Part shown: piece by piece, positions 46,725 through 61,611 of the stretch
Numbering within the stretch: the first letter of the stretch is position 1
Layout of the letters: the number at the start of each line of letters is the position of its first letter
Source: Rikenellaceae bacterium
GTDB lineage: Bacteria > Bacteroidota > Bacteroidia > Bacteroidales > Rikenellaceae
NCBI GenBank assembly: GCA_015060015.1
Contig: SUZG01000001.1
Span: 23,605-87,604 of the forward strand
DNA: 64,000 nt
Reading direction: 5' to 3'
The notes under the pieces: model-generated
The model's input: only the letters and a program-made list of their open reading frames with translations
What the model was told of the DNA's origin: nothing
Database searches by the model: none
Made by a program: the position numbers and the translations under genes

Positions 46725-46742
46725 ATTCAACCGACGCACGAA

Positions 46743-46870
46743 GCAAGGGCAGAGGGCAATTTTATTTGCACTATGCCTTGCAAGAAGGAGGAAAAGCCGA
46801 CCTTGTGTCGGATTAAAATTCAAAATTATTTGGCTGATGCCAAACCGAGAGTAATCAAACTTGTTTGAAT
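46743..46870. repeat. Cluster of short inverted repeats (REP-like) inside the ABC operon
   Basis: GCAAGGGCA..TGCCTTGC, CCGAC..GTCGG, TTTGGC-tgat-GCCAAA and TCAAAC-tt-GTTTGA. Confidence 0.5.
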
Positions 46871-46903
46871 TGCAGATTTAATCAAAGAGTAGCATTAAAG
46901 ATT

Positions 46904-50106: not shown

Positions 50107-51597
50107 CTACAATGGATTCTGATCTGCGTCAGTGATGTATGGATTAGAGTTGATCTCAGAAGAAAGAGGAATCTGGAAAGTAAACAACTTACCAGCAGCC
50201 TGAACAACCTTATCAATATGGTTGCCAGAATCTGTACGGTCAATACCTACGTTGAAACGCTTGTTGGTATACCACTCGTGACCCTCACCCCACAACTCGA
50301 TACGGCTCTGCAAGTGAATCTCCTTCAAGAGCTCATCGCCTGTCTTCGATGACTTAGTGTAACCACTATCACGCTTTGACACCAAGTCGAACAAAGTCTG
50401 CTGTGCAGCAGCTGCCTGATTGTTGCGAGCCTCAGCCTCGGCCTTCAAGAGGTAAGCCTCTGAAAGACGGAAGAAAATCTCGTCAGTCTCCCATGTAGGA
50501 TGATCAAACTTTGTAGAAACGTAAGCGGGACGTTCGTACGACTTACCATCGTTAACATTAACAACCGGACCTGACTCCTTTACGAAATTCTTCTTACGAT
50601 AGTCGGTATCGGGAATCTGGTTGTAAAGACGGTCATCGATACAAATATAGATGCCTTGGTTAGAACCGTTATTGTCGAGAATAGATGGAGATGTCCAAGC
50701 AGAGAAAGCTTTGTTACCATTTGATGTAGAGATTGCCCAATCATAACCAAAAATAGTCTCCGGATATGATACATCGAGGAATCCTCCTGTATACTGCTCC
50801 TCATTCATCAATGAGTAACCAGATGCGATAACAGCTTCAGCAGCAGTAACGGCATCATCATACTCTCCGATAGTTACGCATACGCGAGCCAAAATCATAT
50901 TGGCAACATCCTGATCAATATCAGCGATTGTCTCCTGTGGATTGTAAGCATTCTCCTCGAACAATGTGACAGCTGACTCCAAGTCGCCCTTAATCTGAGC
51001 ATAAACCTCGGTTGAAGGAGTACGACCCATAGCACCACCTACAGTCAGATGGAGAGGTACACCGGCCTTATCCTTACCACCATGCATATAGTCATCCTGA
51101 TAGAGGTACATCAAGTTGTAGTAAGCCAAAGCACGATAGGTCAATGCCTGTGCCTTATAGATGGCTGCCGCACCTGTTACATCAGCAGGAATAAGATCCA
51201 AAATCTGGTTTGCCTTGTAAACCATCTTGTAGTAGAGGCTCCAACGACCAGAAGTGAAAGAGTCGGTCTGACGACGAAGATTAATCAACGCATACTGATC
51301 TGCATACCAGTTGGTATTGTTACTTAAAACCATATCATTACCCTGCATATCCATTTCCAAGCCCCAGCATGCATAACCGATATCCTCGGTACCGCTGTCA
51401 GGAGCTGCCGAATGGAGGAAACTGATAGCAGACTGCATCATAGGAGCCAAAACCTTGTCGGCATCCTTCTTAATAAGCTCTTGGAGCTGCTCATCAGATA
51501 TTGAGCTACCTGCGGGATCAACATCGAGAGCATTAGCACATGATCCAAAGAGCATCGTTACGGCAATAGCCGCCAAATATAATATATTCTTTTTCAT
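50107..51597 (-). CDS. RagB/SusD family lipoprotein (left pair)
   Basis: Lipobox LFGS-C, ALTYRALAYYNL, FRLSEAYLLKAEA and RIELWGEGHEW. Confidence 0.93.
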   Translation of the reverse strand: MKKNILYLAAIAVTMLFGSCANALDVDPAGSSISDEQLQELIKKDADKVLAPMMQSAISFLHSAAPDSGTEDIGYACWGLEMDMQGNDMVLSNNTNWYADQYALINLRRQTDSFTSGRWSLYYKMVYKANQILDLIPADVTGAAAIYKAQALTYRALAYYNLMYLYQDDYMHGGKDKAGVPLHLTVGGAMGRTPSTEVYAQIKGDLESAVTLFEENAYNPQETIADIDQDVANMILARVCVTIGEYDDAVTAAEAVIASGYSLMNEEQYTGGFLDVSYPETIFGYDWAISTSNGNKAFSAWTSPSILDNNGSNQGIYICIDDRLYNQIPDTDYRKKNFVKESGPVVNVNDGKSYERPAYVSTKFDHPTWETDEIFFRLSEAYLLKAEAEARNNQAAAAQQTLFDLVSKRDSGYTKSSKTGDELLKEIHLQSRIELWGEGHEWYTNKRFNVGIDRTDSGNHIDKVVQAAGKLFTFQIPLSSEINSNPYITDADQNPL

Positions 51598-51618: not shown

Positions 51619-54600
51619 TTACAAGTTAAGTGTCAAACCAAATGTAAATGTGCGTGCCTGCGGGAAGTTTACGAATGCTGTGCCTGTGTAACCTGCACGA
51701 GGATCGAAACCGTCGTGAGCAGTGATGAAGCACAAGTTATCAGCATTGAAGAATACTCGCAATGACTGCAAACCGATCTTTGAAGTCCACTTCTTGGGCA
51801 ATGTATAACCAACATTTACGTTCTTCAGATTGAAGTAAGAAGCCTTACGATACAATGCATCGCATCTTGAAGAACCAAAGTCCCAAACACCATTGTAGAT
51901 AACACGTGGGTACTCTGCATTAGGATTCTCGGGAGTCCAAGTATTACCTGCCAAGTCGTCAGATACGGCAAAACCGGGACGCCAAACCTCGTACAAGTTA
52001 GCAGAAGCAGCATCCCACTGAAGACCACCCAACTGATAAGCAGCTGCTACGGTCAAATCGAAGCCCTTCCACTGGAAAGTAGTGCGGATACCACCTACGA
52101 TATCGGGCATTGCATCACCAATCTCATACTGTGAAGCCTCAGCGTAGTTCTCGGTAAGCTCGTCGCCGATAACATTACCGTTCTCGTCCTTAATCTGCTT
52201 CCAGAACTGCTCGTTACCATTCTCAGGATTAACGCCTGCATACTTGAACAAATAGAGGTTGTAGTATGACTTACCCTCGCCACGAAGGAATGCACCTGAT
52301 ACATAGTTACCACCGAGTGCGGGGTTACCCAACTCTGCGGGGAAGTCGATCAACTTGTTCTGCGACATAGCACCGTTAATGCTGATGTTCCAGTATACAT
52401 TCTTTGTCTTGATAAGATCAACTGTTACATCAAACTCGAAACCAGAGTTCTCCAATACACCTACATTCTCCAAGCGTGAAGACAAACCTGTTGAAGATGG
52501 AGTAGGACGGCTCCAGATAAGATCATGAGTACGACGGTTATAGTAATCCAAAGTACCATAAACGCGATCCCACAAACGGAAGTCAACACCTACATCGACC
52601 TGCTTGTTCTTCTCCCAGCTAAGATTACGGTTACCGATTGTTGACTGTGAGATAGTAGGCTGGCCATTCAACTCACCGATACCCCAAAGGTTTGTATAGG
52701 GATAAGCAGAGCTCAAACGGTTACCAGAAACACCATAGGTAGCACGCAAACGAAGGTCATTTACCCAAGTAGCGTTCTCCATCCACTTCTCATTGTTAAT
52801 CTTCCAAGAAGCACCCACTGACCAGAAGTGACCCCACTTGTCATACTTAAACATTGAGGTACCATCGTAACGATAAGAAGCTGATACGGTATAACGATCA
52901 TCGTAGGTATAGTTTGCACGAGCAAAGTAACCCTCGATAGCAGTCTTAACAGTTGAAGAGGTAGAACCATCCTCCAATGGAGTGATAGCGTTACCCAACT
53001 CAGGAATACCCGGGTAGAATACGTTCTTCTTGTAAGCATCAACTGTTACATCCTCGTCCTTGCTGAACTCGTGACCAATCATTGCATCAACAACATGTAC
53101 CTTGTTGATCTTCTTGTGGTAAGACAACATCTGCTGAGTATTCAACGACATATAGTTGTTCATAACCTTCTCAACGATACCGTTCCAAGATGGGTCAGCA
53201 GCTGTACCATACTCATTGTTAGAGTAATAAGTAGCAGCAGCATATACATTGTCCAATGTAATGTTTGCAGTGAACTTGAAATCCTTCAAGAAAGTGATAT
53301 CAACATAAGCGTTTGCAAAGAGGTTATCACGAATCTGATTGTTAATGTCGTGAGTGAATGACTGATAAGGGTGAGCAGAGTTCATAGAGTTGAAGATATC
53401 CAGACCTGGTCCATAAACAGAGGTTGTTGTACCCATACCATTCTCATAAACCTTATTACCATTCTCATCCAAGATGATGTTACCTTGCGGGTCGCGTGCA
53501 TAGTAAGGCACCAAAGGTGACTGCCAAGCAGTCCAAAGGAATGCGTTACCAGTGTTAGCAGCACCACCGAAACCAGGGTTATCGGTATCACGACGTGTGT
53601 AGGCGATGTTAGTACCCAGCTTCATCCACTTTGTAACCTGTGCATTTACGGCAGCACGAGCTGAGAAACGCTTGAACGCAGACATGATAATGTAAGAAGG
53701 ATCCTCCAAGAAACCTCCTGATACATAGTAATCAACACGGTCGTTACCACCACTTACACTCAAAGTGTACTCCTGACGGAACTGCTGAGTAAAGAGATAA
53801 TCGTCGTAGTTATCATAGTAGAGCAACTTTGCGTCCTTGTGGATCTTACCTGTTGTAGGATCAATAGGAGTAGACATACCCTCAGGAATAGAATAAGGCA
53901 TATATCTTCTGAGCATTGTTGACAGGTTGCCTTGTGCCAAGCCGTGAGCACGAGCAGCGTCGCCACCATAGCCATCAAGACCATAGTTATACAAGCCCAA
54001 GTAGAAGTGCTCGATATACTGAGCAGGGTCCATTGTATGGTGCTCCTCTACACCAATCTCGTTCCAACCCCACTTACCCTCGAAGGTAATGTTGGCTTTC
54101 TGATTGCGAGCACCCTTCTTTGTAGTTACGAATACGACACCATTCGCTGCACGAGCACCATACAATGCGTTTGCAGCAGCATCCTTTGATACTACAACTG
54201 ACTCGATGTCAAGAGGGTTGATAGTTGTAAGTGATGATGAATAAGGTACACCATCAACAACAATCAACGCACCTGTGTTACCATTGATAGAACCGACACC
54301 ACGAATAAGAATAGAAGCATCGGTACCTGGCTGACCTGTTGTGCTGTAAGACTGAATACCCGGAACAGCACCCTCCAAGGCCTTAGTAACGGTTGATACA
54401 GTCATCTTCTGAAGGTCCTTGGCGGTAACGGCTGCAACCGAACCGGTCATATCCTTCTTCTTAACCTCACCGAAGGTCTGAACGACAACCTCATCAATGG
54501 CTTGAAGGTTCTCCTTCAACACAACGTTAAAAGAGGTTTTGCCGGCAACCTCAATACGCTGGGCCTCATAACCGATGAACGATACTAACAAAGTACCATT

Positions 54601-54804
54601 AGCGGGGGCCTGCAATACGAAATCACCATCCACATTAGTTGTAACACCGATATTAGTGCCTTCAACGAATACGGTAGCACCTACGACAGGAGCACCAGCT
54701 GAATCGACAACCGTACCGGTCACTTTCTGATTCTGAGCCATTGCCATAGCAACCACGCCCAGAACAGCTACGATAGAAAGTACAATTTTCCTAACCATAA
54801 GCAT
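51619..54804 (-). CDS. SusC/RagA family TonB-dependent transporter (left pair)
   Basis: CarboxypepD_reg-like N-terminus, GQPGTDASILIRG, INPLDIESVVVSKDA..ALYGARAANGV, LSWEKNKQ and PQARTFTFGLTLNL. Confidence 0.95.
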   Translation of the reverse strand: MLMVRKIVLSIVAVLGVVAMAMAQNQKVTGTVVDSAGAPVVGATVFVEGTNIGVTTNVDGDFVLQAPANGTLLVSFIGYEAQRIEVAGKTSFNVVLKENLQAIDEVVVQTFGEVKKKDMTGSVAAVTAKDLQKMTVSTVTKALEGAVPGIQSYSTTGQPGTDASILIRGVGSINGNTGALIVVDGVPYSSSLTTINPLDIESVVVSKDAAANALYGARAANGVVFVTTKKGARNQKANITFEGKWGWNEIGVEEHHTMDPAQYIEHFYLGLYNYGLDGYGGDAARAHGLAQGNLSTMLRRYMPYSIPEGMSTPIDPTTGKIHKDAKLLYYDNYDDYLFTQQFRQEYTLSVSGGNDRVDYYVSGGFLEDPSYIIMSAFKRFSARAAVNAQVTKWMKLGTNIAYTRRDTDNPGFGGAANTGNAFLWTAWQSPLVPYYARDPQGNIILDENGNKVYENGMGTTTSVYGPGLDIFNSMNSAHPYQSFTHDINNQIRDNLFANAYVDITFLKDFKFTANITLDNVYAAATYYSNNEYGTAADPSWNGIVEKVMNNYMSLNTQQMLSYHKKINKVHVVDAMIGHEFSKDEDVTVDAYKKNVFYPGIPELGNAITPLEDGSTSSTVKTAIEGYFARANYTYDDRYTVSASYRYDGTSMFKYDKWGHFWSVGASWKINNEKWMENATWVNDLRLRATYGVSGNRLSSAYPYTNLWGIGELNGQPTISQSTIGNRNLSWEKNKQVDVGVDFRLWDRVYGTLDYYNRRTHDLIWSRPTPSSTGLSSRLENVGVLENSGFEFDVTVDLIKTKNVYWNISINGAMSQNKLIDFPAELGNPALGGNYVSGAFLRGEGKSYYNLYLFKYAGVNPENGNEQFWKQIKDENGNVIGDELTENYAEASQYEIGDAMPDIVGGIRTTFQWKGFDLTVAAAYQLGGLQWDAASANLYEVWRPGFAVSDDLAGNTWTPENPNAEYPRVIYNGVWDFGSSRCDALYRKASYFNLKNVNVGYTLPKKWTSKIGLQSLRVFFNADNLCFITAHDGFDPRAGYTGTAFVNFPQARTFTFGLTLNL

Positions 54805-54855
54805 TAATTTTTGTAAGTTTGTAAACTTTGTGTATTTACCTTTTTAATAAAAAAA
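54759..54855 (-). repeat. Left arm of 97-bp perfect inverted repeat (5' UTR + first 15 codons of left susC)
   Basis: Reverse complement matches 56763-56859 base for base. Confidence 0.95.
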
Positions 54856-55040
54856 CACAACACTGACCCTATGCTGCTACAAGCCTTCCGAAAAGATAAA
54901 AATTAGTGGCGTAGAGGCGGTTTCTATTACTAAATGCACCAGCGATTATTAATGGTAAATATCACAAAAACAACCGGTTATAATCGCAAATAGCTTATTG
55001 TACGTCAACGTGCGATTACTAACTACAAATCATTACTACT

Positions 55041-56291
55041 ATGAAAAATTGTTTTAGAATTACGTTTTATCTCAAACAAAATTCCCCTTTGTCTGACGGA
55101 ACGTGTCCCATCATGTGTCGTATATCTATTGCGGGAGAGAAATGCGTTTTAGCAACCCACTTATCGCTGAAAAAGAAGCTTAAATGGGTAGTATCGAAAC
55201 AACAGGTGGCAGGCAGAAGCGATGAGGCCTGCCGAATAAACAAGTTACTGGATAAAGTACGCTACGGGCTCTATGAGGCATATATAGATGTATTGAAAGG
55301 TTCGGAAAATCCTTCGCCGCAAGCTGTTCGCAGTCGTTTCTTGGGCGAGACGAGAGAACAAATGGGGTTAGTGGCATTTTTTCGGCATCACAACAATGAA
55401 TTTAAGCGTATGGTTGGCATATCTCGCAGCGAGAATACTTTGCATAAATATCAATATGTATGCAATCACTTGGCGGCGTTTATAGAAAAGCAAAAAGCGA
55501 CTCCCGACATACCTATATATAATATAGGATACGATTTTATCTGCGATTTTCATCGCTATCTGCTCAAGGAGGTAGGTTGCAGCACCAATACAGTGTGGAT
55601 TTATATGACGGCTTTGAAGCGTATTCTTCACATAGCGATAGGTCAGGGTCTGCTTTCAACAAACCCATTTTCGGGCTACCACCTACCCTTTCGGCAGCAG
55701 CACAGAAACTTCTTGATGCGTGAGGAGTTGCAACGGCTAACCAAACTGCATCCCGACACCCCCATACAACGTATTGTGTTGGATGCCTTCCTCTTCGGAT
55801 GCTTTACAGGGCTATCCTATTCCGATATAAAACGCTTCACGATGGATAATGTGATTTTTAGTAACGGGCAGATGTCCATCACCATTCATCGAACAAAGAC
55901 TTTGACTCCAGTCGAGATGCCATTGCTCAGCCTCCCCTCATCGATAGTGCAAAATTACGGATGCTCATCCTCTGTGCCACTATTCAAACTCCCCTCAAAC
56001 TACTATTGCAATAGGGTGTTGAGGCAACTATTGCCAATGGTGGGCATAACACGTCGCATAACATTCCACTCGGCTCGCCACACCTTTGCAACTACGATTG
56101 CACTCTCCAACGGCATCCCCTTGGAGGTGGTGAGTGCTATGTTGGGACATAGATCCATAAAAACAACCCAGATTTATGCCCGTGTACAACAATCAACCAT
56201 CCACCAGGTCCTGCAACGGGTGTCAGGCGAGATAAATACCTACTACTGCGAGGGTTTGCAGCCACCACAACGACGCGAGATACGGATATAA
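55041..56291 (+). CDS. Bacteroidota site-specific tyrosine recombinase (Arm-DNA-binding + SAM-like + catalytic domains); putative DNA invertase
   Basis: ITFYLK...CPIMCRISI arm domain, SENTLHKY SAM domain, FGCFTGLSYSD, RTKT, FHSARHTFATT and MLGHRSIKTTQIYA. Confidence 0.92.
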   Translation: MKNCFRITFYLKQNSPLSDGTCPIMCRISIAGEKCVLATHLSLKKKLKWVVSKQQVAGRSDEACRINKLLDKVRYGLYEAYIDVLKGSENPSPQAVRSRFLGETREQMGLVAFFRHHNNEFKRMVGISRSENTLHKYQYVCNHLAAFIEKQKATPDIPIYNIGYDFICDFHRYLLKEVGCSTNTVWIYMTALKRILHIAIGQGLLSTNPFSGYHLPFRQQHRNFLMREELQRLTKLHPDTPIQRIVLDAFLFGCFTGLSYSDIKRFTMDNVIFSNGQMSITIHRTKTLTPVEMPLLSLPSSIVQNYGCSSSVPLFKLPSNYYCNRVLRQLLPMVGITRRITFHSARHTFATTIALSNGIPLEVVSAMLGHRSIKTTQIYARVQQSTIHQVLQRVSGEINTYYCEGLQPPQRREIRI

Positions 56292-56722
56292 CATAGCCAA
56301 AACGAGGGTTTTCTCACTAACAAAACTAAAAAACAGGGTGCCAACTCTCGCAAAACATAACATTGGTTTGCATATATATTCTCCAAAATGGAATTTTTAT
56401 CGCCTTTGGAAGATAAAGAGAATCTTGCGTGCCACAACACCTTCAAAAAATAAATAAAAAAGGGATAAAGAAGCCTATCACACGAGTAGAAAAGTATAGA
56501 ATTTGTCATTTTTTGGCTATAAATTGATATTTTTACTGCCCAAATTGGCACAATTTATAACTTAAATGACTTATTGCTGTGAGATTTTTTAAGGGCTGAC
56601 AAGAAAATGCTTACACTTTTTACGTTTTTCAACATTTCTGATTAAAAACAATACGACAAAGTGCCTATTATATCAAAAAGTGTTATTTATTACAAATTAT
56701 TATTAATTTAATGTTAATTTTT

Positions 56723-56754
56723 TTTGCTTGTTATAAATATAAAGGTTATCTTTG
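56723..56754 (+). promoter_or_regulatory. Consensus Bacteroidota promoter (-33 TTTG 56723-56726, 20-bp spacer, -7 TATCTTTG 56747-56754) driving the right susC/susD
   Basis: Both boxes at canonical spacing, immediately inside the right inverted repeat. Confidence 0.8.
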
Positions 56755-56762
56755 CGAATGTA

Positions 56763-56859
56763 TTTTTTTATTAAAAAGGTAAATACACAAAGTTTACAAA
56801 CTTACAAAAATTAATGCTTATGGTTAGGAAAATTGTACTTTCTATCGTAGCTGTTCTGG
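56763..56859 (+). repeat. Right arm of 97-bp perfect inverted repeat (5' UTR + first 15 codons of right susC)
   Basis: TTTTTTTATTAAAAAGGTAAATACACAAAGTTTACAAACTTACAAAAATTAATGCTTATGGTTAGGAAAATTGTACTTTCTATCGTAGCTGTTCTGG. Confidence 0.95.
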
Positions 56860-59800
56860 CAGTGAGCTTCGCAGCCCTTGCACAGAACAAGCAAGTGAGT
56901 GGTACGGTAACTAATTCAGACGGTTTGGCTGTCGCTGGTGCAACTGTTATCGTTGAGGGCACAACAAACGGAGTTATTACCGACACTAATGGTGCATTTA
57001 ATTTGTCTGCACCCGCAAACGGTACACTCGTAGTTTCTTTCCTCGGTTATGAGGAGGAGTCTATTCCCGTTGCAGGCAAGACAAGCATCAACGTAGTTTT
57101 GAAGACTGCCTCTGAGAAGCTCGACGAGGTTACAGTCGTTGCTTTCGGCACAAAGCGTAAGCAGGATATCGTAGGTTCTGTGGCAACTGTTAAGGAGGGT
57201 CTTATCAGCAACTCACAGGCTACATCAGTATCTGCTGCTTTGGAGGGTGCCGTTGCAGGTTTGCAGGTCTTCACATCATCAGGTCAGCCCGGTTCTGACT
57301 CATCAATCCTCTTGCGTGGTGTTGGTTCTTTGGATGGTAGCAACAGTGCTTTGATCGTTGTTGACGGTGTGCCTTTCAATGGCTCATTGTCAGACTTGAA
57401 CCCCGCCGACATCCAGTCAATCACCGTATCAAAGGACGCCGTATCTAACTCATTGTACGGTTCACGTGCTGCCGGTGGTGTGGTTATGGTAACTACAAAG
57501 CGTGGTTCTAACGACCGCATTCAGATTAACTTCACAGGTAACTGGGGTGTTACAAGCCGTGCTTACAAGGATTACGACATGGTAACCGATCCGGGTGAGT
57601 TCTATGAGTTGACATGGTATGGTATCCGTAACTCAGAGTGGGCAAAGAACGAGCATGATCTTGCTGCCGCTAATGCTTATGCAACAGATGCTTTGCTTGG
57701 TGAAGTAGGTAACTACAACGCATTCATCATTCCAGAGGGCGAGCCTTTGGTAGGTCTTGATGGTAAGTTGAACCCCAATGCTCGTGCTCGTTACAACGAC
57801 TCATTTGCTGATGCATTGTTCGATACATCATTCCGTCAGGAGTATCAGGTATCTGCAGCCGGTGGTTCAGACAAGTCTGACTACTATGTATCATTGAGCT
57901 ACCTTGATAACGACTCTTACGTTATCGGTTCAGACTTCACTCGTTTGACTACACGTGTTAATCTTAACACTCAGCTCCGTAAGTGGTTGCGCGTAGGTGC
58001 TAACCTCTCTTACTCAAAGACAGATCAGAATGGTGTTCAGGAGAGCACAAGTGCTGCTTCTAACCCATTTGACGTTGCTCGTGGCTGGGCTCCTATCTAC
58101 CCCGTACACGCATACGATGCAGAGGGTAACTTGAAGTACAACGTTGACGGTACTCCTATGTACGATGCTGGTACAGGTCAGACTGACGGTACTATTTCTC
58201 GTCCTACTGCAACCAACCAGAACGTTGTTTGCTCTATGTTGGAGGATGTTCGTAACGCTGAGTCACACAACCTTGCTACTCGCTTGTTCGCAGAGATTAA
58301 GTTCCTGAAGGACTTCACTTTCACTGCTAACTACGCTTACGACTACTCTCACTCTTTCCAGACTGTTTACTATACTCCTACTATCGGTGATGGTCAGTCA
58401 TTCCAGGGTCGTAGTACAAAGTATTCAGGTTCAGGTACTACTACCAACTTCAACCAGATTTTGGCTTACAACAAGATCGTTGGCGAGCACAATATATCTG
58501 CAAAGATTGGTCACGAGTACTATGTATATAAGGGTAGAGGTTTCGAGGGTCAGAAGACTCGTTTCTTTGATCCTATGAACCACGAGCTTATCAATGGTGG
58601 TCAGATGGAGTATATCACATCTTCTACCTCACACCACAACATCGAGGGTTACTTCGCTATGGCAGACTACAACTATGGTAGCAAGTACTATTTGTCAGCT
58701 GCTTATCGTCGTGACGGTACATCTCGTTTCTTGCAGCGTTGGGGTAACTTCTGGTCAGTAGGTGCTGGCTGGCGAATCTCAAAGGAGAAGTGGATGGAGA
58801 ACGCAACGTGGGTTAACGACTTGAAGATCCGTGCATCTTATGGTACACAGGGTAATGAGAATGGTAACCTGGGTTACACTCCTTATCAGGACTTGTGGTC
58901 AGTAACCTGGGATGGTTCACAGCTCGCATACTCTCCTGCATTCTACGGTAACCCCGATTTGACTTGGGAGAAGCAGGCTACTGTTGACGCAGGTATCGAC
59001 TTCCGTTTGTGGAATCGCGTATCAGGTTCTATTGAGTACTACTACCGTAAGACCGATGATATGCTCTTCCAGGTTCCGAAGTCAATCGCTTCAGGTCGTC
59101 CTTACAACTGGGAGAACCTCGGTGCTATGTCAAACCAGGGTGTTGAGTTCGAGGTAACTGTTGATTTGGTTAAGACTCGCAAGGTTAACTGGTCTGTAAC
59201 TTTGGTAGGTGCTCACAACACTAACAAGTTGCTCACTCTTCCCGAGGAGAATCGTGCAGATGGTATCGTAGCTGGTCAGTTCAAGCGTATGGAGGGTAAG
59301 AGTATCTATGAGTACTACACTTACCGCTATGCAGGTATGAACGAGCAAGGTCAGCCTCAGTGGCACGGCTTCCAGCGTGATGATGAGGGTGAGTATGTTC
59401 TCGACGAGGCAGGTAACAAGATCCCTGCAATCTCTACTAACTACTCTTACGCTGAGAAGGAGTACATTGGCAAGGTTGCTACTCCCGATTTGACTGGTGG
59501 TTTGAGCACTACATTCAAGTGGAACGGTATCGATGTTAACATCGCAACTGCATTCCAGATTGGTGGTTGGGCATATGACTCTTCTTATGTTGGTGAATTG
59601 AGCCAATCATTCTATGTTGGTCACCACCGCGATATGTGGAAGACTTTCAACCCCGAGACTATGGAGGGTAAGTATCCTATCTGGAACGCTAACGATTCTG
59701 TTAACACCTATACTAAGGCATCTGATGCACACCTTATCAGTGCTTCTTACTTCAGCTTGCGTAACGTAACTATCGGTTACTCATTCCCCAAGAAGTGGAT

Positions 59801-59972
59801 GCAGAAGTTGGGTATCGGTGGTATCCGTGTATATGTAACAGGAGATAACCTCGCTTTGTGGTCTAAGCGTCAGGGATTTGACCCACGTGTATCTGTAAGC
59901 GGTGGAAACAGTGGTTTCAGTGGTTATGCTCCTTTGCGTGTAATCTCTGGTGGTATTAACCTTACATTCTAA
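56814..59972 (+). CDS. SusC/RagA family TonB-dependent transporter (right pair)
   Basis: GQPGSDSSILLRG, LNPADIQSITVSKDA..SLYGSRAAGGV, LTWEKQ and APLRVISGGINLTF. Confidence 0.95.
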   Translation: MLMVRKIVLSIVAVLAVSFAALAQNKQVSGTVTNSDGLAVAGATVIVEGTTNGVITDTNGAFNLSAPANGTLVVSFLGYEEESIPVAGKTSINVVLKTASEKLDEVTVVAFGTKRKQDIVGSVATVKEGLISNSQATSVSAALEGAVAGLQVFTSSGQPGSDSSILLRGVGSLDGSNSALIVVDGVPFNGSLSDLNPADIQSITVSKDAVSNSLYGSRAAGGVVMVTTKRGSNDRIQINFTGNWGVTSRAYKDYDMVTDPGEFYELTWYGIRNSEWAKNEHDLAAANAYATDALLGEVGNYNAFIIPEGEPLVGLDGKLNPNARARYNDSFADALFDTSFRQEYQVSAAGGSDKSDYYVSLSYLDNDSYVIGSDFTRLTTRVNLNTQLRKWLRVGANLSYSKTDQNGVQESTSAASNPFDVARGWAPIYPVHAYDAEGNLKYNVDGTPMYDAGTGQTDGTISRPTATNQNVVCSMLEDVRNAESHNLATRLFAEIKFLKDFTFTANYAYDYSHSFQTVYYTPTIGDGQSFQGRSTKYSGSGTTTNFNQILAYNKIVGEHNISAKIGHEYYVYKGRGFEGQKTRFFDPMNHELINGGQMEYITSSTSHHNIEGYFAMADYNYGSKYYLSAAYRRDGTSRFLQRWGNFWSVGAGWRISKEKWMENATWVNDLKIRASYGTQGNENGNLGYTPYQDLWSVTWDGSQLAYSPAFYGNPDLTWEKQATVDAGIDFRLWNRVSGSIEYYYRKTDDMLFQVPKSIASGRPYNWENLGAMSNQGVEFEVTVDLVKTRKVNWSVTLVGAHNTNKLLTLPEENRADGIVAGQFKRMEGKSIYEYYTYRYAGMNEQGQPQWHGFQRDDEGEYVLDEAGNKIPAISTNYSYAEKEYIGKVATPDLTGGLSTTFKWNGIDVNIATAFQIGGWAYDSSYVGELSQSFYVGHHRDMWKTFNPETMEGKYPIWNANDSVNTYTKASDAHLISASYFSLRNVTIGYSFPKKWMQKLGIGGIRVYVTGDNLALWSKRQGFDPRVSVSGGNSGFSGYAPLRVISGGINLTF

Positions 59973-59997
59973 TTAACAGTAACCTTAAAAACAGATA

Positions 59998-61611
59998 ATG
60001 CTTATGAAAAAGATATTTTTAATCTTGGCGGCAGGTGTTGCAGTAACACTTACGTCTTGTCTTAAGGACGCAGAGGTTACAGCTTACTTGACTCCGGATT
60101 CAAAGAACGAGATCGCATCTGCAGATCCCGGTAAGATTTTTGATGCCGCTGTAGCCGGTATCTATACAGACATCCAAAGTTATGTTTATTCTAACCAGCA
60201 GCACAACAACTTTGGTCAGAAGAGTTTTGACTACCTTTCATCACTGTTGGGTAACGACTTGATTATGACAGGCCGTTTCGGTATGAGTTTGTATCACTAT
60301 CAGTTGTCTTCTTGGTCAGACACCCAGTATTGGTTTGTTGAGAACCGTTGGAGAGAGCACTACAACCATATTTCAAACGCAAACTCTATCCTTGGCTCTA
60401 TCTCAGCTGATGAGACCAATCCTGAGGTTTTGAAGTATAAGGCTTATGCACAGACTGCTCGTGGTTATGCATACCTGCACCTCTCTTACCTCTTTGGTGT
60501 ACCTTACTATATGGGTGCCGAGGGTACTGCTTGGGGTATGAACACCAAGTACTCTGGTTCTAACGCCGATGCTCCTTGTGTACCTATCATCAAGGAGGAT
60601 ACTCAGGGTGACCAGCCTCGTGCAACTGTAGGTCAGGTATTTGAGCTTATCGTTAGCGATTTGACAGCTGCTTATGAGTTCTTCGATGCTAATGGTATGC
60701 TTATGACAGCAACTCCTACCGACTTTGATGGTTTGGTAGCAGCTAACTACTTGATGCGTGCTCATATGATTATGCACAACTGGACTGAGGCCGAGCAGTA
60801 TGCAAAGATTATCGTTGATACAGCTCCTATAGCATCTGCTGCTGATTTGATGCAGGGCTTTAGCGATATCTCTCTTCCTAACGTCATCTTTGGTTGCGAT
60901 ATTACTGCCGATAACACTACCACCTATATGTCATACTTCTCACAGATGGATATGTTCGGTGATGGTTATGCAGGTATTGGTGTATGGCGTGCAGCTGATG
61001 CTCGTTTGATGTCTAACATCCCTACAACCGATATCCGTCGTGACTGGTTCGTATGTCCTGATAACCACGCCAAGTTGAGTGCAGAGTTGGGCTTGTACCC
61101 AATTCCGTACTACACAGAGGGTCCATCACCTGCTAACTTCCCTATGTATCAGGCTTGTAAGTTCATTGGTGCAGGTCGTGCTAATGTTGTTGACGGTTAT
61201 GGCGATGGCTGGCACCTCGGTGACTACATCTACTTGCGTTCAGAGGAGGCACACTATTGCTTGGCTGAGATCTATGCTCACCAGAACAACTTGGATGGTG
61301 CTATCAAGGTATTGGAGGATCTTACCAAGATTCGTAACGCAGAGTACGCTTATGCAGGTGCGAAGACAAAGGCAGATGTTATCTCTGAGATTATCCTTCA
61401 GAAGCGTATCGAGTTCTGGGGTGAGGGTCTTGAGCATATCGACAACCGTCGTTTGAACATCCCTGTTACTCGTAACTACGAGGGTAGCAACCACCTTGCT
61501 GCTTGTGCTTACAATATTGGTCAGGAGGATCCACGTTTCGTATATATGATTCCTATCGCCGAGATCGAGGCTAACTCAATGATCGATGAGGAGGATCAGA
61601 ATATGCACTAG
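59998..61611 (+). CDS. RagB/SusD family lipoprotein (right pair)
   Basis: Lipobox TLTS-C, AQTARGYAYLHL, YLRSEEAHYCLAE and KRIEFWGEG. Confidence 0.93.
   Translation: MLMKKIFLILAAGVAVTLTSCLKDAEVTAYLTPDSKNEIASADPGKIFDAAVAGIYTDIQSYVYSNQQHNNFGQKSFDYLSSLLGNDLIMTGRFGMSLYHYQLSSWSDTQYWFVENRWREHYNHISNANSILGSISADETNPEVLKYKAYAQTARGYAYLHLSYLFGVPYYMGAEGTAWGMNTKYSGSNADAPCVPIIKEDTQGDQPRATVGQVFELIVSDLTAAYEFFDANGMLMTATPTDFDGLVAANYLMRAHMIMHNWTEAEQYAKIIVDTAPIASAADLMQGFSDISLPNVIFGCDITADNTTTYMSYFSQMDMFGDGYAGIGVWRAADARLMSNIPTTDIRRDWFVCPDNHAKLSAELGLYPIPYYTEGPSPANFPMYQACKFIGAGRANVVDGYGDGWHLGDYIYLRSEEAHYCLAEIYAHQNNLDGAIKVLEDLTKIRNAEYAYAGAKTKADVISEIILQKRIEFWGEGLEHIDNRRLNIPVTRNYEGSNHLAACAYNIGQEDPRFVYMIPIAEIEANSMIDEEDQNMH

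Follow-up and report, generated by a model that had tools for sequence, protein, structure and literature searches.

The window analysed here, i.e., the whole stretch of 64,000 nucleotides, carries two divergent pairs of susC and susD genes separated by a single recombinase gene. The left pair is read from the minus strand (54804-50107) and consists of an intact susC of the SusC/RagA family (51619-54804, 1061 aa) and an adjoining susD-like gene (50107-51597, 496 aa). The right pair is read from the plus strand (56814-61611) and comprises a second susC of the SusC/RagA family (56814-59972, 1052 aa), followed in the same orientation by a gene encoding a susD-like lipoprotein (59998-61611, 537 aa). 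Both SusC proteins score above the TIGR04056 cut-off of 368, with 767 bits and, for the right susC, 757 bits, and SusD-like_3 is above its cut-off for both genes downstream of the susC genes. Between the left and right pair, the SusC proteins share 41% identity and the SusD proteins 28%. Despite the divergence of the SusC proteins, the first 15 codons and the 5'UTRs of the two susC genes match base for base.

The gene located between the two pairs (55041-56291, plus strand) encodes a tyrosine recombinase of 416 aa and is the only gene in an interval of the invertible type, 54856-56762 (1,907 bp), which lies between two perfect repeat arms. Three domains of the recombinase are above the Pfam cut-offs, including Arm-DNA-bind_5, the SAM-like Phage_int_SAM_5, and the catalytic Phage_integrase domain. 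The gene is intact, all 59 columns that are invariant among 31 family members are present, and the protein is the putative invertase. The nearest named homologues are annotated as 'site-specific integrase [Alistipes sp.]' (40-42% identity), while the nearest loci found by a profile scan of genome contigs belong to uncultured Alistipes/Rikenellaceae (47-50% identity). In addition, the closest named relatives of a branching-enzyme gene near the switch are found in Alistipes MAGs (82-83%), and these relationships point to an uncultured Alistipes-like gut bacterium as the organism. The sequencing runs that contain the locus are faecal and gut metagenomes.

Compared letter by letter, the two arms form a 97-bp inverted repeat without any mismatch (54759-54855 and 56763-56859), which stretches to 106 nt at 97% when extended, with identity falling sharply beyond the perfect part. 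Read on the minus strand, the left arm covers the 5'UTR of the left susC together with its first 15 codons and 1 nt more, and the right arm covers the 5'UTR of the right susC and its first 15 codons (MLMVRKIVLSIVAVL). Both start codons are thus found inside the repeat, preceded in each susC by a shared leader of about 51-54 nt. The inner end of the right arm carries the predicted crossover core TTTTTTTATTAAAAAGG (56763-56779, plus strand), with a mirror copy at 54839-54855. These inner ends are the only two copies of TTTTTTTATTAAAAAGG in the 64-kb window, and the relaxed core TTTTWWATTAAAA is found in the same two places only. By analogy with a 16-nt site in a sister species described below, and from the alignment of the loci, TTTTTTTATTAAAAAGG is probably the site of strand exchange in the window strain. 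As a separate observation, the susC start itself, i.e., the end of the leader and the codons for MLMVRKIVL... (56806-56860 and 54758-54812), is common to many susC genes of gut metagenomes and metatranscriptomes. The contig depth of DNA over the repeat is ~10 times that of the flanks.

A promoter-like sequence is located at the 3' end of the segment and points outward across the right arm. It consists of a -33 element, TTTG (56723-56726, plus strand), a spacer of 20 nt (56727-56746), and a -7 element, TATCTTTG (56747-56754, plus strand), that ends 8 bp before the start of the right arm; an earlier note on this DNA had placed the promoter at exactly these positions, and all coordinates check out. 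In order, the stretch 56700-56762 reads ...TTTTTTTG CTTGTTATAAATATAAAGGT TATCTTTG CGAATGTA, and the C directly 3' of TATCTTTG fits the extended form TAnnTTTGY. The composite TTTG-N20-TATCTTTG conforms to the promoter consensus of sigma-ABfr, the housekeeping sigma factor of Bacteroidota, which has been documented as TAnnTTTG at -7 and TTTG at -33 (PMC7366714, PMC8748976). Based on this published consensus, the transcription start site (TSS) is predicted at about 56760 (56759-56762), at the edge of the repeat (PMC7366714, PMC8748976). A scan for sigma-70-type promoters was set aside, as it is uninformative for Bacteroidota. In the window, TAnnTTTG alone occurs 46 times versus 24.8 expected, while the composite TTTG-N18-22-TAnnTTTG occurs six times versus 0.55 expected (128 kb, both strands), with none of 100 shuffles giving as many as six. 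Furthermore, TTTG-N20-TATCTTTG is the only canonical outward-facing box adjoining either arm.

Homologous loci were gathered in two ways, by scanning genome contigs with a recombinase profile and by scanning metagenome contigs with a 35-nt piece of the repeat. A scan of the genome contigs with the single recombinase protein gave no match, and the profile scan returned 80 loci, which were informative only at a recombinase identity of at least 40%. Among these, the Alistipes loci L004 and L006 have kept the layout of repeats flanked by susC genes, and L003 and L005 end at a contig edge. The remaining genome loci, with identities of at most 37%, are without flanking repeats and were set aside as ordinary integrases. 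In L004 and L006, as well as in the metagenome loci L084-L093, TTTG-N20-TAnnTTTG adjoins one of the repeat arms and faces outward from the segment. With the exception of L092, the composite motif in these loci is also located downstream of the recombinase gene and co-directional with it, and the same placement is seen in eight of the nine metagenome-contig loci holding both genes. An alignment of seven regions, i.e., the window and six homologous loci, demonstrated that the -33 TTTG, the 20-nt spacer, and the -7 TAnnTTTGC are invariant, as is an AT-rich stretch 7-9 nt past the -7 element, while the surrounding columns vary. It is mainly this conservation across homologous loci that speaks for the box being a functional promoter. 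At the sequence level, the position of the promoter between the arms, its spacing, and its direction are invariant in every related locus that was examined, which covers Alistipes and Rikenellaceae genomes as well as metagenome contigs.

Locus L092 displays a different arrangement. Comparing L092 (3583-5634) with L094 (7560-7763) and L086 (1-1760) of a related species reveals a third copy of the AT-rich site (TTTTATATTAAAA), located upstream of the -33 element at a distance of 3 nt. Between the site of the left arm and this third site, the part of L092 that carries the recombinase gene is inverted, and the promoter still points right. Moreover, ~175 extra nt are found between the promoter and the susC leader.

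Taken together, the right pair is probably ON and the left pair OFF in the assembled orientation. The earlier note had predicted the same, and as a prediction it is supported by the architecture, by the invariant promoter, and by the presence of both orientations in a sister species. Here, the sigma-ABfr-type promoter TTTG-N20-TATCTTTG at the 3' end of the segment would fire outward with a start at about 56760, and the transcript would cross the shared 5'UTR and the shared signal-peptide codons into the right susC and susD (56814-61611). The left pair shares this 5'UTR and start, but its neighbour in the assembled orientation is the 5' side of the recombinase gene, which is promoter-less, and the pair would be expressed hardly or not at all. 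The recombinase is proposed to swap strands at the AT-rich TTTTTTTATTAAAAAGG cores at the inner ends of the arms, by which the 1.9-kb segment would flip. In the flipped state, the promoter would drive the left pair through the identical leader, with the right pair cut off. The outcome would be that two divergent outer-membrane importer complexes are expressed in a mutually exclusive manner.

Other promoter-like motifs bear on the predicted silence of the left pair. By eye, the earlier note had found no TAnnTTTG on the minus strand of 54856-55040, facing the left susC, and a scan of that interval agrees that there is no exact match. The best near-boxes on that strand, TGTTTTTG at 54972-54965 and TATCTTTT at 54898-54891, both match five of six positions and have poor -33 elements. 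The further claim of one clear promoter inside the segment stands insofar as there is a single canonical outward box, but a second composite match is also present inside the segment. This second motif, TTTG-N22-TAGTTTTG (56321-56354, minus strand), is an exact composite match with a 22-nt spacer; it is located just past the stop codon of the recombinase gene and points antisense through that gene. It could serve antisense control of the invertase or give leaky expression of the OFF pair. No terminator-like sites were found in 54000-57500, and together with the minus-strand motif this makes read-through into the left pair possible.

It could thus be speculated that the right pair is driven by its promoter while the left pair is not silent, either through read-through from the minus-strand motif or through a non-canonical promoter such as the five-of-six boxes may represent, and that the switch sets a ratio between the pairs rather than an ON/OFF state. 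We consider this unlikely. The minus-strand motif has a spacer of 22 nt, whereas every copy of the main promoter has 20 nt; it has no counterpart on the minus strand of any of the related loci examined; and it is ~1.5 kb away from the left susC. RNA from relatives also argues against a substantial leak, as transcripts resembling the left pair are at least 5-fold below those resembling the right pair in the metatranscriptomes X25-X27, even at 80% likeness. These three gut metatranscriptomes also count in favour of the main reading, right pair ON and left pair OFF, as a right susC/susD pair of ~97% identity is found in them at a contig depth of about 45-60. At a likeness of at least 95%, there is almost no depth over the left pair or the recombinase, and at 80% likeness, pieces resembling the left pair reach a depth of about 5-9 with 84-90% identity. 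The runs, however, contain a relative whose housekeeping flanks are only about 88-90% identical, and contig depth reflects expression poorly.

Run X29, from the same study as X25-X27, contains a strain of 98-99% identity. Its left pair and recombinase are covered evenly at a low depth (3-8), whereas at a likeness of at least 95% the right pair is scarcely represented. This pattern could reflect contaminating DNA, a difference in gene content, or the opposite phase, and it was counted neither for nor against the model. Calling the opposite phase from X29 and X34 was attempted and rejected, as the data are too shallow and too mixed for the call. When the RNA runs were mapped in three ways, the RNA contigs of relatives began at 56806-56822 and had at least six different continuations. 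These starts are no guide to the TSS, as this stretch is common to many susC transcripts and the assembly graph branches there.

The RNA contigs of related strains also differ from the window at two places unrelated to the promoter. Between the genes for an ABC ATPase and a permease, 171 nt (46725-46895) are swapped for 31 others (GCAGAGTGGTTGTTGTAACGCTATAATAACA) in X25, X27, X29, and X34, and the hairpin-rich insert of the window is therefore strain-specific. In the right susD, 137 nt (61009-61145) are swapped for 137 others in the ~97%-identical relative of X25-X27, making this a local hypervariable patch in a gene that is otherwise conserved.

The recombinase gene itself may be transcribed from the arms. 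An inward-facing -7-like box, TAAGTTTG, is found inside the left arm (54814-54821, plus strand), with its mirror in the right arm (56804-56797, minus strand), and in L084, L092, and L094 this position is held by TACGTTTG. No canonical box was found between the left arm and the ATG of the recombinase. The TAAGTTTG boxes are candidates for a promoter that may serve the recombinase independently of orientation.

Evidence that segments of this type invert comes from a sister species. On contigs L084, L085, L088, L089/090, and L091, the promoter faces a susC of type FA, and six independent contigs of this species, with L083 in part among them, have the promoter end by FA and the 5' end of the recombinase gene by a susC of type FB. 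Contig L087 displays the reverse arrangement, with the promoter facing FB. Between contigs of the two orientations, the flanks are 97-99% identical. The four junction sequences in the sister species differ solely by an exchange at a shared 16-nt site, TTTTATATTAAAATAC, located 8 nt past the -7 box, and at these junctions each susC retains the variable part of its own 5'UTR. A site of 16 nt is shorter than the k-mer sizes usually employed in assembly, and an assembly chimera is therefore unlikely in these contigs. In a species with the same layout and with a repeat core common to the window, both orientations thus occur naturally.

These contigs weigh against the view that the arrangement in the window is fixed, in which gene conversion or selection would account for the identity of the repeats, the recombinase would either be an inactive relic or have its targets elsewhere, and a constitutive right pair would be accompanied by a left pair kept as a silent reserve. 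Such a view could point to the first 40-50 nt being common to many unrelated gut susC transcripts, suggesting conservation beyond recombination, and to the lack of any inverted-orientation sequence of the window strain among the k=31 contigs and the one identical assembly. Yet the recombinase has all family-invariant residues, both genes of the left pair are intact, the 64 kb contain exactly two copies of the AT-rich core, located at the inner repeat ends, and the sister species shows both orientations with clean site-specific exchange, all of which make a fixed arrangement distinctly improbable.

As for the DNA of the window itself, the k=31 unitigs of runs X1-X7 break at 54788/54826 and 56792/56830, and the k=31 contigs isolate a piece of 1,967 bp corresponding to the segment plus 30 nt of each arm. 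These contigs carry no orientation signal, as k=31 is too short to span the 97-bp repeat. Just one further assembly covers the locus, L001; it is 100% identical, has the same orientation, and was not counted as independent. A contig of a 97%-identical strain, reached via the neighbouring branching-enzyme gene, stops before the switch, and none of the Nanopore runs contained the locus stretch. Of the 120 best recombinase homologues, 61 were found only on contigs of about 1.2-2.1 kb, which is the size expected for repeat-bounded segments. This suggests that repeat-bounded segments carrying a recombinase gene are very common in metagenomes of gut Bacteroidales.

That the promoter match arose by chance in AT-rich intergenic DNA, with transcription of the right susC having another source, such as read-through out of the recombinase gene, is hardly credible: the 470-bp interval 56292-56762 is indeed AT-rich, and five-of-six -7-like boxes are frequent in it, but the six composites against the 0.55 expected and the -33 and -7 columns that stay invariant across the loci of several species while neighbouring columns vary both speak against it.

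Beyond the switch between the two pairs, a wider reading may be offered tentatively, as a combination of three propositions that would have to hold jointly. First, this recombinase family may, throughout the Rikenellaceae, use the core TTTTWWATTAAAA at the TSS or within a few bases of it, and a flip would then exchange everything from +1 onward. Second, the long identical stretch of 5'UTR and signal-peptide codons would not be a recombination site, and its identity would be kept by other forces. Third, the additional site upstream of the promoter, as seen when comparing L092 with L094 and L086, would let the recombinase gene invert apart from the promoter, from which a self-regulating switch with multiple states could follow. 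We regard this combination as possible but doubtful.

The switch proposed for the window, with the right pair ON and the left pair OFF in the assembled orientation, would let an abundant and little-studied gut lineage (Alistipes, Rikenellaceae) show one of two very different SusC/SusD complexes per cell. Such alternative SusC/SusD surfaces matter for nutrient uptake, phage receptors, and immune recognition, as work on Bacteroides has shown. A single assembly does not reveal which expression state such pairs are in, and orientation must be scored. Here, the conserved promoter combined with a core of 13-16 nt provides a simple signature to find and orient such switches in metagenomes. The current understanding of the mechanism is unchanged by the window locus.

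The locus most likely belongs to the known phase-variable SusC/SusD inversion systems of Bacteroidales. Features of this class are present, namely a local tyrosine recombinase, inverted repeats that bound the segment and abut alternative susC genes, and a promoter sequence between these repeats. Tyrosine recombinases have been shown to bring about SusC/SusD phase variation in B. fragilis as well as in B. thetaiotaomicron (PMC4747536, PMC12632263, bioRxiv 10.1101/521070), and invertible regions associated with SusC/SusD are prominent in human metagenomes (bioRxiv 10.1101/2023.03.31.535104). In B. fragilis, SusC/SusD phase variation has been attributed to Tsr0667 (Nakayama-Imaohji et al. 2009, J Bacteriol 191:6003, as cited in PMC4747536 and PMC12632263). 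In the account given in PMC4747536, Tsr0667 is a master invertase of three SusC/SusD clusters and nine other regions with multiple inversions of the shufflon type. As far as these citing accounts describe it, the likeness to the switch proposed for the window is that a tyrosine recombinase inverts DNA at SusC/SusD clusters, leading to the expression of alternative importer pairs. By the same accounts, Tsr0667 acts on many regions, whereas the window locus has one recombinase inside a simple two-site segment between two pairs.

Another related system is the shufflon of the B. thetaiotaomicron PUL BT1032-BT1053, where the recombinase BT1041 moves the expressed 5' end among three susC-like genes (Porter et al., bioRxiv 10.1101/521070). 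As in the window, the recombinase gene is located in the middle of the locus, and the expressed 5' end moves together with the promoter between alternative susC-like genes, as is predicted for the window. Both systems also have a short exchange core, which is 7 bp in the BT1041 shufflon and at most 16 nt in the sister species of the window. However, the sites in B. thetaiotaomicron are found inside the susC coding region and are flanked by imperfect direct repeats, whereas the site predicted in the window is upstream of the 5'UTR, at the TSS. Furthermore, the B. thetaiotaomicron system has three susC genes and a promoter dependent on an ECF sigma factor, while the window has two susC genes and a housekeeping-type promoter and is without sigma/anti-sigma genes.

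Finally, the locus resembles the recombinase-linked invertons of gut Bacteroidales, with examples at CPS loci, S-layer lipoprotein loci, and resistance genes (PMC8748976; bioRxiv 10.1101/521070). These bacteria often have an invertible consensus promoter shortly after the end of an invertase gene (PMC8748976), and the window likewise has a -33 TTTG/-7 TAnnTTTG promoter directly 3' of the putative invertase gene, with inverted repeats on both sides. Typical invertons, however, are a few hundred bp long, turn one operon ON or OFF, and have the invertase gene outside, whereas in the window the invertase gene is inside the 1.9-kb segment and a flip would pick between two operons.
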